From NCBI RefSeq assembly GCF_036507355.1, contig NZ_AP027877.1: a stretch of 64,000 nucleotides of DNA; one strand, written 5' to 3'. A program made the translations under genes and the position numbers. This DNA is from Escherichia coli (GTDB taxonomy: Bacteria; Pseudomonadota; Gammaproteobacteria; Enterobacterales; Enterobacteriaceae). Below, piece by piece: positions 11,501-20,073 of this stretch. Numbering within the stretch: the first letter of the stretch is position 1; each line of letters starts with the position of its first letter. The notes beneath the pieces are model-generated. The model was given only the letters and a program-made list of their open reading frames with translations, had not been told where the DNA came from and made no database searches.

Positions 11501-11827
11501 TTATTTGTTATTACTGCGAATTTCCTGCCAGACCTTATCACAATCGGCTTTCACCGCCTGATCATTTCCGGTTTGCGTTGCACGCAGACACTGCTGATAA
11601 TCCAGTACGCGTACACTTTCCTGGTCGGCAAACTGCTGATGTTGTTTCTCTTTCTTCAGCACGTTTAACACGCTCTGGCAGGCTTCAATTTTTTCTGGCG
11701 AACCTTGTGCGGTGTTGATACAGGCGCTGTATGCCTCTTTCAGACGGCTGTCTTCCTGTGGCGCGGTTGATTGCGCACAAGCCACCAGCCCCGATGCCAT
11801 CATGGCGATGAGAATCAGTTTTTTCAT
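11501..11827 (-). CDS. chiQ: Lipoprotein ChiQ/YbfN (108 aa), distal gene of the chiPQ operon
   Basis: ORF 11501..11827; signal peptide with lipobox LVAC-A; 49 bp downstream of chiP. Confidence 0.88.
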   Translation of the reverse strand: MKKLILIAMMASGLVACAQSTAPQEDSRLKEAYSACINTAQGSPEKIEACQSVLNVLKKEKQHQQFADQESVRVLDYQQCLRATQTGNDQAVKADCDKVWQEIRSNNK

Positions 11828-11876: not shown

Positions 11877-13283
11877 TCAGAAGATGGTGAATGGTGCGAT
11901 TACCATAAATTTCACGTCACGCTCATCCTGGAAGATGTTGCCGTAACCACCGCCCCAGCTTGGGATGTCGGAGTGGTTGTCGTATTCGGTGAAATGCAGT
12001 TTGAACATCGTGCCTTTGGCGCGGCCGTCCTGAATGGTGTAGACCGCATCCAGGCTGTATGCAGACTCTTCAATAGTCCGGTTTTTGTCGTAGTACGCAT
12101 CCGGATTGCTCTGCCAGGTCGCAGGTTTAGCATCCCATGCGTAAACGTAGGAAGCGCCGATGGCGAAGCCTGGAAGATTCCAGTTTTTCAGGTCATACAT
12201 CGCACCGAAGAAGACCGCTTTTTCGCCGTTGGCGTTGAAGTCAGAACGGTTATCCCACCAGATATCCAGGCGACCGTTCGAGGAAGCGTAGGTTGGAGTC
12301 ATACGTTGCAGGAAGTATCCCTGCTGACCGTCAGCTTTAACCCAGGTGCCTTCGAGGCGCAAATCCACTACGTCAGCCGCCCGGTAACCAAAGGTCAACG
12401 CTTGCAGCCAGGCGGTGCCGTCATAAAGATCGTTGACGCTGCGATCGTCAACTTTATCGCGCGTACCGTAGAACTGGTAGCTGGTGGTTAACGGGCTACC
12501 GGCGATATCAAATTTGTAGCTGGCTTTGGCAAAGTATTGATCGATATACCCTTCCGCCTGACCAAATGCCGCTTCCAGTACGAAGTTATTTTTGAAGTCG
12601 TATTTCGCACCGATGGAGTGCAGATAATCAACTTTGGTAGTTTTATCGTTCTGATAAAACTCATCCATTTCCAGATGCCACGGTGCTTTGTATTCGTTGG
12701 TCCACATGTAGGAGAAACTCAACGCACCGGCATCGCCGTAATCAAAATTCGCTCCGGCTTCCGCACCCTGATAGGTACCTGGCATAAAGCTCCAGTGCGG
12801 CGCTAACAGCGTCTGACCGGTTGGCTGAATATAACCTGCCCTCGCCCAAACCGGACCGTATTTAAATTTGGCCGCAGCTTTATACAGGCTTATACCGCTT
12901 TTGTCGCCGGACCAGTCTTCGTCATAGGCTTTATTACTTTTTGAAAACGCGATTTCGTTCGGGTGAGAGCTGTCGCCGTTTTCCGCCATTTCAATCGCCG
13001 TAAACGCAGCAATATCAAGGCCGAACATATCAGCAGCATAACCGGACTGAAAATCGAGGTTGGCATTCCAGGTGGAGTGAGAAAGGTTGGTTTTGTATTT
13101 GTCGCCGTCGGTAACATCTTTACGGTCGCGTTCACGCTGCCAGTAATATATACCGCCGGTTAAGGTTGAATCGTCGATGAATCCTTCGGCGCGAGCCTCC
13201 GGCATTGCCATAAAGCCCGACATTGCTGTAACACCGGCGATAGCCAGCGCCAGCGTACTACGTTTGCCACTAAACGTACGCAT
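11877..13283 (-). CDS. chiP: Chitooligosaccharide-specific outer-membrane porin ChiP/YbfM (468 aa)
   Basis: ORF 11877..13283; signal peptide, OprD-like beta-barrel with C-terminal aromatic residue (F). Confidence 0.93.
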
Positions 13284-13400
13284 GGGTTAATCCTCTTTGA
13301 CGTATAAATTGCTGCACCAAAGGTGAACAGCGAAAAAAAATAAAAATTAAAAAAGTAGCGTTGAGAAAAGTCTCGCTGACTACAGGAACAGACTATTTTT
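13284..13400 (-). promoter_or_regulatory. chiP 5' leader and promoter-proximal region (expected ChiX sRNA pairing site and NagC control)
   Basis: AT-rich untranslated region directly upstream of the chiP start; regulation inferred from E. coli/Salmonella literature, not demonstrated here. Confidence 0.4.
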
Positions 13401-13632
13401 CGCGACGCGAATTATCAATCTCTTTCTGTAACCAGAATGTAAGAACATGAGCAACCGCACATATTTTGATGATTTTTGTTACAAGGCTTAAGTTTGCGGT
13501 TGAAAGGCTTGCAGAAGAATAAAAGCGTGAATTTCCAGCAAGATGAAAGCGGTTACATTTTATTTAATTATGTTTTGTTATTTTAAATTTATTTTATGGA
13601 TAAATTGCGAAGCGGAATTAATTCGCGAAGAA

Positions 13633-13665
13633 AAGCAGAAAAAACGCCGCTGAACGCGGCGTTTT
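13633..13665 (-). terminator. Rho-independent terminator of glnS
   Basis: Minus strand reads hairpin aacgccgcgttcagcggcgtt followed by a T-run, downstream of the glnS stop. Confidence 0.7.
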
Positions 13666-13685
13666 GGATTGTTTGCATATTTCTT

Positions 13686-13849
13686 GCCGGATGCGGCGTG
13701 AACGCCTTATCCGGCCTACAAAAGCACGCAAACTCAATATATTGCAGAGATCATGTAGGCCTGATAAGCGTAGCGCATCAGGCAATTTAGCGTTTGAAAC
13801 TGTTTGTCTGTTCCTTGCCGGATGTGGCGTAAATGCCTCACCCGGCCTG
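13686..13849. repeat. Cluster of three REP elements (BIME-like)
   Basis: gccggatgcggcgtgaacgccttatccggcctac / gtaggcctgataagcgtagcgcatcaggc / gccggatgtggcgtaaatgcctcacccggcctg. Confidence 0.85.
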
Positions 13850-13862
13850 GTAGAACTTAAAA

Positions 13863-15527
13863 TTACTCGCCTACTTTCGCCCAGGTATCACGCAGCCCAA
13901 CGGTGCGGTTAAATACCGGTTTTTCCGCCGTGGAATGGCGACTGTCGAGGCAGAAGTAACCTTCACGCTCAAACTGGAATGCTTTACCCGCTACCGCATC
14001 TTTCAGCGACGGTTCAGCAAAGCCCTGTTTGATCACCAGCGATTCAGGGTTAATCACCGACAGGAAATCATCCGCAGCACCTGGGTTCGGCACGCTGAAC
14101 AGACGGTCATACAAACGGATTTCAACCGGCAGCGCATGTGCCGCGCTCACCCAGTGAATAACGCCTTTCACTTTACGACCATCAGCCGGATCTTTGCTTA
14201 AGGTGTCGGCGTCATAAGTACAGAAGATGGTGGTGATATTACCTTCGGCATCTTTCTCGACGCGTTCTGCCTTAATCACATAAGCATTACGCAGACGCAC
14301 TTCTTTACCGAGCACCAGACGTTTGTACTGCTTGTTAGCTTCTTCGCGGAAATCGGCGCGATCGATCCAAATCTCACCGCTAAACGGCACCTGACGGCTC
14401 CCCATTTCCGGTTTGTTCGGATGGTTCGGCATGGTAACCATTTCGCCTTCGCCCTGATAGTTTTCGATAACCAGTTTCACCGGATCGATAACCGCCATTG
14501 CGCGCGGGGCGTTTTCGTTGAGATCTTCACGGATGCAGGATTCCAGCGACGCCATCTCAATGGTGTTGTCCTGCTTGGTCACGCCGATGCGTTTGCAGAA
14601 CTCACGAATAGAAGCCGCAGTGTAACCACGACGACGCAGACCGGAAATGGTCGGCATACGCGGGTCATCCCAGCCTTCAACGTGCTTATCGGTCACCAGC
14701 AGGTTCAGCTTACGCTTGGACATCACAGTGTATTCCAGATTCAGGCGCGAGAATTCGTATTGGCGCGGGTGAACAGGAATGGTGATGTTGTCCAGTACCC
14801 AGTCGTACAGACGACGGTTATCCTGGAACTCAAGCGTACACAGAGAGTGCGTAATACCTTCCAGGGCATCGCTGATGCAGTGGGTGAAGTCGTACATCGG
14901 GTAGATGCACCACTTGTTGCCAGTCTGGTGGTGTTCAGCAAATTTAATGCGGTACAGCACCGGATCGCGCATCACGATAAACGGTGAAGCCATGTCGATT
15001 TTCGCACGCAGGCAGGCTTTACCTTCTTCAAAACCGCCGGTACGCATTTTCTCGAACAGCGCCAGGTTCTCTTCAACGCTACGGTCGCGGTACGGGCTGT
15101 TTTTACCCGGCTGCGTCAGGGTGCCGCGGTATTCGCGGATCTGTTCCGGCGTCAGTTCATCAACGTACGCCAGGCCTTTATTGATCAGTTCGATCGCATA
15201 GGCGTGGAGCTGATCAAAATAATCGGAGGAGTAACGGACGTTACCAGACCAGTGAAAACCTAACCACTCTACGTCGTTTTTGATCGAATCGACATACTCG
15301 ATATCTTCTTTTACCGGGTTAGTGTCGTCGAAACGCAGGTTGCACTGGCCTTTATAGTCCTGGGCGATCCCGAAGTTCAGGCAGATAGATTTCGCATGGC
15401 CAATATGCAGATAGCCATTCGGCTCCGGCGGGAAACGGGTGTGTACTGTGGTGTGCTTACCACTGGCCAGATCTTCATCGATGATCTGACGGATAAAGTT
15501 AGTCGGGCGGGCTTCTGCCTCACTCAT
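13863..15527 (-). CDS. glnS: Glutaminyl-tRNA synthetase (554 aa)
   Basis: ORF 13863..15527; class I HIGH (LHIGHAKS) and KMSKS-type (VMSKR) motifs. Confidence 0.97.
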
Positions 15528-15785: not shown

Positions 15786-17732
15786 TTACTTTTTGATTTC
15801 ATACAGCGGCGTTTGACCCGCCACAACATGCCCCTGAGCTTTAATGATAAGGCCACTGAAATCGTCGATATTGCTGCAAACCACCGGGCTAATCATCGAA
15901 CGGGCGTTAGCGTTCAGGTAATCCAGATCCATTTCCAGAATCGGTTGCCCTGCGCTTACCTGCGCGCCCTCTTCCACCAGACGTTTAAAGCCTTTACCTT
16001 CCAGCGCTACGGTGTCGATACCCATGTGGACGACAATCTCCGCGCCTTTTTCGGTTTCCAGGCAGAACGCGTGGTTGGTGTTGAAGATTTTCACGATTGT
16101 CCCTGCGGCTGGTGATACGACGATTTTATCTGTCGGTTTCACCGCCACACCGTCACCCACCGCTTTGCTGGCGAATGCTTCGTCAGGAACCTGATCCAGT
16201 GCCACGACATCACCGGTAATCGGCGATACCAGCTCCGCGATAGATACCGCGTTTGGTACAGCCTGCGGTTTTGCTACAGGAGCGGCAGTTGCCGGAGTTG
16301 CTTCAGCAGAGGCAGCTGCTACCGGGCCACGGGCAACGACTTTCTTCATCGCATCGCCGATGGATTCTGCTTTCGCGCCAACAATCACCTGAATAGTCTG
16401 TTTGTTCAGTTTTACTACCCCAGAAGCCCCCAGACGTTTACACATCGTATCGTTAACGCGGGCAGAGTCAGCCACTGTAAGGCGCAGACGGGTGATACAG
16501 GCGTCAATTGCTTTCAGGTTGTCAGTGCCGCCAACCGCAGCAATATAGTTGGTCGCCAGTTGATTGAGGCCTTCTTCAGTGTTGCTGTTGGCTTCTTCAG
16601 TAACGATCTCATCTTCTTTATCTTCACGACCCGGCGTTTTCAGGTTGAACATGCGGATAACCAAACTGAACACCACGAAGTAGATAGCGAAGAAGACAAC
16701 ACCCATCACCAGCAGCATCCAGACGTTCTGGCTGGCGGCCGGCAGGTTATACATCAACGCGTAGTCGATAGCCCCCGCAGAGAAAGAGAAGCCGGCATGG
16801 ATACCCAGCAGCGTTGCCACAAACAGGCTGATACCGGTCAGCAGTGCGTGCAGGAGGTACAGCAGCGGAGCAAGGAACATGAACAGGAATTCCAGCGGCT
16901 CAGTCACACCGGTCAGGAACGCAGTAACAGCAACAGAAAGCAGCATCCCGCCAACCATCGGACGACGCTCTTTCGGTGCTGCGAAGTACATCGCCAGCGC
17001 CGCACCCGGCAGACCGAACATCATGATCGGGAAGAAGCCGGACATGAACATCCCCGCGGTGCCGTCACCAGCGTAGAAACGGTTGATGTCGCCGTGGAAA
17101 ACCGTACCCGCCGCGTTGGTGAATTCACCAATCTGGAACCAGGCGATGGTGTTCAGCACCTGATGCAGACCGGTTGGGATCAGCAGACGGTTGATGAAAC
17201 CAAAGATACCGGAACCCAGCGCGCCCGCAGAAACGATCCACTCGCCGCCTGCATGGATAGCGTGCTGTACCGGCGGCCAGACATAACCAAAAATGGCCGC
17301 CAGCACCAGGCAGAAGAAGCCGGTGGCGATCGGCACAAAGCGTTTGCCGCCAAAGAAGCTCAGGAAGTCCGGCAGTTTAATATCGGACCAACGGTTATAG
17401 GCTGCGCCACCAACCAGACCGGTAATGATACCCGCCAGTACACCCATGTTAATTTCTGGGTTGATGGTCACCATCGCTTTGGTTAACACAAAGTAACCTA
17501 CCGCACCCGCCAGCGCCGCCGCACCTGCGCTGTCTTTCGACCAGCTGGATGCCACACCGATGGCGAAGATTAATGCGAGGTTATCAAAAATCGCACCGCC
17601 CGCCTGGGCAATAAACGCAACGTTAAGTAAATCTGGCTGACCGAATCGCAGCAACAGTGCCGCCACCGGCAGCACCGCGATAGGGAGCTGTAACGCCCTA
17701 CCGAGTCGCTGGAAAAAACCTAAAATATTCAT
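15786..17732 (-). CDS. nagE: PTS N-acetylglucosamine-specific EIICBA component (648 aa)
   Basis: ORF 15786..17732; N-terminal polytopic EIIC, central EIIB, C-terminal EIIA domain. Confidence 0.96.
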   Translation of the reverse strand: MNILGFFQRLGRALQLPIAVLPVAALLLRFGQPDLLNVAFIAQAGGAIFDNLALIFAIGVASSWSKDSAGAAALAGAVGYFVLTKAMVTINPEINMGVLAGIITGLVGGAAYNRWSDIKLPDFLSFFGGKRFVPIATGFFCLVLAAIFGYVWPPVQHAIHAGGEWIVSAGALGSGIFGFINRLLIPTGLHQVLNTIAWFQIGEFTNAAGTVFHGDINRFYAGDGTAGMFMSGFFPIMMFGLPGAALAMYFAAPKERRPMVGGMLLSVAVTAFLTGVTEPLEFLFMFLAPLLYLLHALLTGISLFVATLLGIHAGFSFSAGAIDYALMYNLPAASQNVWMLLVMGVVFFAIYFVVFSLVIRMFNLKTPGREDKEDEIVTEEANSNTEEGLNQLATNYIAAVGGTDNLKAIDACITRLRLTVADSARVNDTMCKRLGASGVVKLNKQTIQVIVGAKAESIGDAMKKVVARGPVAAASAEATPATAAPVAKPQAVPNAVSIAELVSPITGDVVALDQVPDEAFASKAVGDGVAVKPTDKIVVSPAAGTIVKIFNTNHAFCLETEKGAEIVVHMGIDTVALEGKGFKRLVEEGAQVSAGQPILEMDLDYLNANARSMISPVVCSNIDDFSGLIIKAQGHVVAGQTPLYEIKK

Positions 17733-17853
17733 CTTATTCCCCCTACGAGAACCCTATTTGGCTCGTTTAAAGCCGTATTTTTATTGTGCTGCAAATTGTA
17801 CTGCCGATGTTCTGTAATCAGATTGTTAGATCATCTGCCACAGAGTGTGTGAA

Positions 17854-17878
17854 AATTTAATTCGTATCGCAAATTAAA
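17854..17878. promoter_or_regulatory. Candidate NagC operator (nagE-proximal)
   Basis: aatttaattcgtatcgcaaattaaa, an AT-rich dyad (TTAATTCG...CGCAAATTAA) resembling described NagC operators. Confidence 0.5.
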
Positions 17879-17886
17879 CGCGTGTC

Positions 17887-17908
17887 TTTTGTGAGTTTTG
17901 TCACCAAA
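17887..17908. promoter_or_regulatory. CRP binding site in the nagE/nagB divergent promoter region
   Basis: tTGTGAgttttgTCACc matches the TGTGA-N6-TCACA consensus. Confidence 0.6.
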
Positions 17909-18064
17909 TATCGTTATCATCACTCCCTTTTACTGGCTAAATCAGAAAACTTATTTTATCATTCAAAAAATCAGGTCGGATTGACGCCTGTCTGCGCAAA
18001 TCCAAGTTACGCTTAAAGATGCCTAATCCGCCAACGGCTTACATTTTACTTATTGAGGTGAATA

Positions 18065-20073
<2,009 letters not shown>

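Follow-up and report, generated by a model that had tools for sequence, protein, structure and literature searches.

The AT-rich DNA upstream of chiP in Escherichia coli as a very likely complete cis-regulatory region of the chiPQ operon

We analysed the surroundings of the chiP gene in a 64,000-nucleotide stretch of Escherichia coli DNA, which we call the window throughout. The glnS, chiQ and nagE genes were located from open reading frames and family scans, and the chiP product was assigned by its match to the NCBIfam ChiP equivalog (852 bits). The DNA leading from glnS to chiP contains, in this order, the glnS stop codon, three REP elements, a terminator hairpin, an AT-rich stretch and the chiP ATG at 13283. 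RefSeq genomes also have the gene order glnS-chiP-chiQ.

15786–17732, minus strand: nagE
13863–15527, minus strand: glnS
About 13670–13850: three REP elements, seen as sub-threshold matches to naRNA4 and ES036 (about 39 copies per genome)
13665–13641, minus strand: intrinsic terminator hairpin of glnS, a 10-bp stem followed by a T-run; upstream boundary
11877–13283, minus strand: chiP, 468 amino acids, start codon at 13283
11501–11827, minus strand: chiQ

The glnS terminator hairpin lies outside the chiP control region. The three REP elements form a BIME-like cluster between the glnS stop and this hairpin and, since the cluster precedes the hairpin, it is transcribed within the glnS 3' UTR. 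Some of these elements are missing in related Escherichia, where the spacer measures 447–516 bp as against 579 bp here. No Rfam 15 family reached its gathering score in 12800–14100, and the sub-threshold Rfam matches reaching into 13518–13632 centre on the terminator and REP sequences. Small open reading frames in the intergenic DNA were short and unconserved and were rejected as spurious. The same almost certainly holds for a 52-amino-acid 'hypothetical protein' called by PGAP, since its reading frame crosses both the REP elements and the glnS terminator; in E. coli J6 this call (positions 240–398 of locus L085) corresponds to about 13596–13790 of the window, on the strand opposite to chiP.

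A sequence-only reading of this DNA had described about 350 bp of AT-rich sequence between the chiP start and the glnS terminator and REP cluster. The composition bore this out, with a G+C content of 34.1% for 13284–13632 against a window mean of 51.1%. Equally AT-rich windows of 349 bp amounted to only 0.8%, and the stretch ranked fourth among the non-overlapping AT-rich stretches, its lowest G+C part being 13500–13616 (29%). The segment was found in 5424 of 5426 complete E. coli genomes, once in each and nearly always at 95% identity or more. The published chiP (ybfM) region of E. coli and Salmonella, known for ChiX/MicM, NagC, GalR and ChiZ, is this very locus. Aligned with MG1655, it differs by one SNP (13532) and by two extra T in a T-run (U8 in the transcript instead of the published U6), the operators and the ChiX site being identical.

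For comparison, we fetched 80 orthologous chiP loci from Enterobacteriaceae, one genome per species, and aligned the 400 nt upstream of the chiP ATG; 79 sequences entered the counts. Synteny of glnS and chiP was kept in nearly all 80 loci, with a spacer of 385–580 bp wherever glnS was found. The alignment revealed discrete conserved blocks within otherwise divergent AT-rich DNA. All features of the control region are read on the minus strand, upstream of chiP.

13639–13617, minus strand: distal NagC-like operator TCTGCTTTTCTTCGCGAATTAAT, its centre 223 bp upstream of that of the proximal operator, about -245
13558–13616, minus strand: most AT-rich segment, between the distal NagC-like site and the GalR operator, variable in length among species
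13557–13543, minus strand: GalR operator TGTAACCGCTTTCAT (plus strand ATGAAAGCGGTTACA), centred about -166.5
13484–13476, minus strand: 9-bp palindrome TTGTwACAA, here TTGTAACAA, centred about -97
13461–13447, minus strand: CRP-like site TGTGC-N6-TCAT, centred at -70.5 in apparent class I geometry; extended form TATGTGC-N6-TCAT at 13463–13447
13418–13390, minus strand: putative core sigma-70 promoter, with -35 TTGATA (13418–13413), a 17-nt spacer and -10 TAGTCT (13395–13390)
13416–13394, minus strand: proximal NagC operator GATAATTCGCGTCGCGAAAAATA, an exact match to 'ybfM proximal' in FITBAR Table 1 (PMC3098098)
13383–13284, minus strand: chiP 5' UTR, identical with the ChiZ sRNA, 100 nt here and 98 nt in MG1655
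13354–13333, minus strand: UA-rich tract UUUUUUAAUUUUUAUUUUUUUU, 22 nt between two hairpins, a reported Hfq rim-binding site
13302–13291, minus strand: ChiX pairing site CGUCAAAGAGGA, overlapping the Shine-Dalgarno sequence, 8–19 nt upstream of the AUG

The transcription start of chiP, whose mapping had been proposed from the letters of the window, falls at G13383. This position derives from the RefSeq annotation of MG1655, where the ncRNA chiZ (b4808, 708236–708333) ends one base before the chiP start codon, and it agrees with the published in vitro chiP RNA, which begins with GUAGUCAGC. Only 100 nt (13383–13284) are therefore transcribed leader, the other ~250 bp being promoter and upstream operator DNA. 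The leader is identical to MG1655 chiZ except for the two extra T, which lie in its U-tract. ChiZ has been described as an Hfq-dependent RNA of ~90 nt that acts as a sponge of ChiX and increases upon chiX deletion (Adams et al. 2021, PMC7815308). Its 3' end, at the start codon, is Rho-dependent, and its overexpression raises chiP and lowers ChiX (PMC7815308). ChiZ resembles the IspZ-type sponges derived from 5' UTRs, in which a stable Hfq-bound leader fragment titrates an sRNA (Adams 2021). Unlike them, it sponges the sRNA that represses its own parent mRNA, and Rho, instead of an intrinsic terminator, generates its 3' end. The U-run of the leader (13333–13340) is polymorphic among E. coli strains, with U8 here and in SCU-316, U7 in O111 14614 and AH50, and U6 in MG1655 and CREC-629, so that the ChiZ/5' UTR length ranges from 98 to 100 nt.

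The sequence-only reading had also expected ChiX to pair near the chiP ribosome-binding site and had named the lack of such a duplex as what would speak against it. We compared the single-stranded part of ChiX, taken from MG1655, with 40-nt tiles across the window and found a perfect 12-bp duplex lying over the Shine-Dalgarno sequence, in which chiP CGUCAAAGAGGA and ChiX UCCUCUUUGACG form 12 contiguous Watson-Crick pairs (-21.0 kcal/mol). It ranked first among 12597 distinct duplexes on both strands (mean -6.9, sd 2.5), the best in the 64-kb window. Unrestricted RNAduplex runs of ChiX against long tiles produced long, unrealistic duplexes everywhere and were discarded. The pairing site was conserved at 95% or more across Enterobacteriaceae, and the ChiX-chiP interaction is, as cited in PMC7815308, validated by compensatory mutations, repression in vivo being abolished by mutations in either partner and regained when both are changed to match (Figueroa-Bossi 2009; Overgaard 2009). 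In Kosakonia and a related MAG (five loci), this near-invariant site, elsewhere GUCAAAGAGGA, reads GUCCAGAAGGA, or GUCUAGAAGGA in one of them (L050). Kosakonia chiX would then be expected to carry matching changes, namely UCCUUCUGGACG, complementary to GUCCAGAAGGA.

Folding of the leader predicted, in order, a first hairpin (SL1), a UA-rich single strand, a second hairpin (SL2), a linker and the ChiX site with the Shine-Dalgarno sequence. A UA-rich tract upstream of the pairing site is a feature of class II sRNA targets and is present here; Hfq CLIP crosslinks have been reported within the UA-rich sequence of chiP (PMC5207318). The two-hairpin layout was predicted in 67 distinct leaders from ~25 genera (median z = -2.65 against shuffles), with stems of differing sequence: GUAGU/GCUAC, AGUGG/CCACU, GGUAGUUA/UAACUACC and AGGAG/CCUCC for SL1, and GCUG/CAGC, GCGG/CCGC and CGCC/GGCG for SL2. 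RNAalifold returned zero consensus pairs from a MAFFT alignment of the 67 leaders, because this alignment is not structure-aware, and the apparent conservation of leader structure derives from folds of single sequences. In several Citrobacter spp. and one MAG (six loci), a repeat of ~120 nt lies between SL2 and the ChiX site, extending the 5' UTR to ~220 nt with the ChiX site preserved downstream. This repeat contains GTGAC.GGG.TGAGCGAGGAA and is presumably an ERIC/IRU element.

Upstream of the start, we placed the promoter hexamers from the annotated 5' end, which lies 7 nt downstream of the putative -10. Conserved A residues at 13425–13423 occupy the position of an UP element, and the promoter block is conserved at more than 95% across the 79 species. 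A consensus promoter scan missed the chiP promoter, because its -10 matches just 3/6 positions, and returned a single match elsewhere that was no better than those in shuffled sequences.

Published statements describe chiP as repressed by NagC, and the search for NagC motifs suggested by the earlier reading recovered the published proximal operator as the strongest match. With a matrix built from nine other published sites, the proximal chiP site being left out, it scored 22.8 bits, the top value of the 64-kb window, which it shares with the nagE operator (17856–17878). It is a 23-bp dyad with the TT-N9-AA core and AT-rich arms of NagC sites, nearly invariant in the 79 species; centred at -22, it fills the spacer of the promoter and reaches into both hexamers. 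In E. coli GPEC60-12-649, an IS1 element (positions 748–1500 of locus L089) has inserted ~9 bp upstream of the chiP -35, equivalent to about 13428 of the window. The distal NagC-like, GalR and CRP-like sites are thereby cut off from the promoter, with no damage to the proximal NagC operator, the leader or chiP.

The nearest upstream block is the CRP-like box, whose TATGTGC and TCAT halves are invariant in 79/79 sequences; the six bases between them vary, and the box always lies at one distance from the proximal NagC operator. The core TGTGC-N6-TCATG matches the CRP consensus TGTGA-N6-TCACA at 7/10 positions, with C for A in the first half and a poor second half, and within the window the bare pattern is not rarer than expected by chance. 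CAP sites of similar form occur at chbB (TGTGA-N6-TCATA) and nagE-B, and ybfM has been listed among new CRP targets by genomic SELEX (PMC3105977). Class I sites are 22 bp long and centred near -61.5, -71.5 or -82.5, so we read the candidate site, centred at -70.5, as class I. Further upstream, most positions of the palindrome TTGTwACAA are 87–100% identical in the 79 species, with a central base that is either A or T (46% A) and variable flanks. We take its form to resemble that of GntR-type GT-N-AC operators.

The GalR operator combines a 16-bp hyphenated dyad, GTGNAANC.GNTTNCAC, with published occupancy in vivo. Qian et al. (2016) reported a GalR ChIP-chip peak at 708069, at chiP, with the inferred site ATGAAAGCGGTTACA (PMC5110547, Table 3). 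The peak maps to position 13550 of the window and the chiP site is identical to the inferred one. That paper counts the chiP site as an already known GalR operator, citing Plumbridge 2014 (PMC5110547). The site scored 18.7 bits, the best match in the window to a GalR matrix from which it had been left out. We had first read 13557–13542 as a second CRP-like site; the ChIP-chip match and the matrix identify it as the GalR operator. About 40 of the 79 species share such a site, 143–148 bp upstream of the proximal NagC operator. Citrobacter and Klebsiella have it, as E. coli does, and Salmonella enterica subsp. diarizonae, E. albertii and one further locus (L005) lack it. As it is missing in such close relatives, the GalR input to chiP appears to be lineage-specific.

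The outermost element is the distal NagC-like site, and the label 'proximal' in FITBAR implies that its authors already knew a distal one. Its right half fits NagC sites well, with a perfectly matching arm; its left half is degenerate and overlaps the T-tail of the glnS terminator. With TT-N9-AA kept, the site of this strain scores 7.4 bits with the NagC matrix (9.9 bits in an overlapping alternative frame), as against 9–23 bits for orthologous sites, and it shares 17/23 bases with the published distal operator of chbB. The half-site CGCGAATTAAT (13627–13617; pattern G[CA][GA]AA[AT]TAA[TA]) occurs at the homologous place in 69 of the 79 sequences, and full NagC-like palindromes of 16–23 bits are found there in Klebsiella, Raoultella, Kosakonia and Kluyvera.

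The spacings between the two NagC-type operators fall into classes of 200–203, 210–214, 221–226, 232–238 and 245 bp, with two species as outliers off this phase, at 162 and 170 bp. The best-fitting period was 10.65–10.85 bp; when each spacing value was counted once, 124 of 5000 random sets were as periodic as the data, and a test of this kind is inflated by shared ancestry. As GalR stays 143–148 bp from the proximal operator, the differences in length originate further upstream, in the poorly conserved segment 13558–13616 that separates the GalR operator from the distal site and is probably a loop or spacer. Between the two NagC-type operators, G+C content is 26–46% across genera, and AA/TT periodicity is weak (z = 1.7 here, median 0.8). 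Spacing classes ~11 bp apart suggest a repression loop.

Two other systems of the same kind help to interpret this arrangement. The divergent nagE-nagB control region (17733–18065, 37% G+C), located in the same window, provided an internal positive control for the NagC matrix, its two operators (17856–17972) scoring 22.8 (nagE) and 18.4 bits (nagB) and flanking the CAP site TGTGAGTTTTGTCAC. Two NagC operators and a CAP site lie there in AT-rich DNA, an arrangement that chiP would share through its putative distal NagC and CRP sites. The nagE-nagB operators are ~94 bp apart and both strong, whereas those of chiP are 223 bp apart with the distal one weak in E. coli, and chiP, in contrast to nagE-nagB, has a GalR operator inside the putative loop. 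Repression of nagE-nagB is said, from work by Plumbridge and Kolb, to involve DNA looping. The chbBCARFG operon, with a distal NagC operator, a CAP site, ChbR repeats and promoter, belongs to the same chitosugar regulon as chiP. Like the distal chiP site, its distal NagC operator has CTTCGCGAATTA as its last bases, and the CAP site TGTGA-N6-TCATA comes next. It has two ChbR direct repeats by its -35, to which the box beside the chiP -35 shows a weak resemblance; with only 10/16 matching bases and poor conservation, we rejected this box as a ChbR repeat. Both mRNAs pair with ChiX, that of chb as a decoy titrating it and that of chiP as a target repressed by it. The chiP spacings would fit a NagC loop like those of nagE-nagB and chb.

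The main alternative, which we regard as unlikely, is that function is confined to the promoter-proximal ~140 bp, with the leader, the promoter and its NagC operator and the CRP-like box, 13470–13640 being neutral AT-rich spacer beside a terminator and the distal half-site a chance or decaying match. The 7.4 bits of the E. coli site, the poor conservation and variable length of 13558–13616 and the weak AA/TT periodicity all agree with it, as does the intact chiP retained by the strain carrying IS1 just upstream of the -35. However, 13543–13557 is occupied by GalR in vivo, the half-site CGAATTAAT is kept in 69/79 sequences while its flanks diverge, with a full NagC-like palindrome in many genera, the operator spacings cluster ~11 bp apart, and the glnS-chiP spacer never falls below about 385 bp.

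It is quite unlikely, again, that the stretch serves mainly as a platform for H-NS or another nucleoid protein silencing chiP, as happens with horizontally acquired AT-rich DNA, a role that would be compatible with regulation by the sites described above. A G+C content of 29–34%, among the lowest in the window, and an AT-richness maintained across genera would suit such a platform, but chiP and its linkage to glnS belong to the Enterobacteriaceae core, 5424 of 5426 E. coli genomes having the locus, and so are no recent acquisition, and conservation sits in discrete blocks shaped like dimeric sites and matching NagC, GalR and CRP. Open reading frames of 26–64 codons, PGAP 'hypothetical protein' annotations in some genomes and a promoter-like match at 13586–13557 might point to a hidden gene upstream of the chiP promoter, on one strand or the other, for a small protein or a separate sRNA. 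This is highly improbable, since the annotated frame crosses the REP elements and the terminator, promoter-like matches are no more numerous than in shuffled sequences, the sequence of 13558–13616 is unconserved and no Rfam family reaches its threshold.

We consider it very likely that 13284–13632 is instead the complete cis-regulatory region of the chiPQ operon, exerting control at both the DNA and the RNA level. This agrees with the early suspicion that the stretch held more regulatory content than a simple promoter, now specified as chiZ, the GalR operator, the CRP-like and distal NagC-like sites and the Hfq site. In the mechanism that we propose, the weak sigma-70 promoter (TTGATA, 17 nt, TAGTCT) would initiate transcription at G13383, and NagC bound to its high-affinity operator in the spacer blocks RNA polymerase until inactivated by GlcNAc-6-P. 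The CRP-like site at -70.5 probably provides class I activation, with the GalR operator at -166.5 also lying within the region. The distal NagC-like operator (~-245) probably cooperates with the proximal one, looping out ~200 bp of AT-rich DNA. Once the leader is made, the UA-rich tract between its two hairpins binds the Hfq rim, and Hfq-bound ChiX pairs with the 12 nt over the Shine-Dalgarno sequence and blocks translation. Such a block reportedly exposes the chiP open reading frame to Rho (work of Bossi, 2012). At low levels of ChiX, a 3' end formed by Rho at the start codon frees the leader as ChiZ, and ChiZ then acts as a sponge of ChiX. The literature provides NagC repression, the proximal operator, GalR occupancy, the CRP SELEX listing, the start, ChiX pairing, the Hfq site and ChiZ; our own inferences are the exact hexamers of the promoter, a CRP site with class I geometry, a function for the distal NagC-like site, and the loop.

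A further reading goes beyond this mechanism. It would combine a helically phased loop of 200–245 bp, enclosing the GalR and CRP sites, with a role of TTGTwACAA as the operator of a further chitoporin regulator; we put it forward tentatively, as possible though rather doubtful. The phasing of the loop may have been maintained across Enterobacteriaceae while the distal site of E. coli decayed, and both the NagC loop and the palindrome may be absent from the existing literature.

The region itself is already known: nearly every part of it has been published and chiZ is annotated in RefSeq. Its confirmation brings no new biology, and what it does establish is that a dense, real regulatory region was recognised from sequence. 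The comparative additions are the invariant CRP-like box, the phased distal NagC-like site, the TTGTwACAA palindrome and the conserved two-hairpin leader predicted by folding. The resulting comparative map could guide specialists in choosing which upstream elements to mutate, and natural variants offer ready-made tests: the U6–U8 tract, the IS1 insertion, the ERIC-like insertion of Citrobacter and the altered ChiX site of Kosakonia. chiP stands as a textbook case of layered control, in which transcriptional repression, silencing by an sRNA, an mRNA decoy, Rho polarity and a sponge made from its own leader act on one gene.
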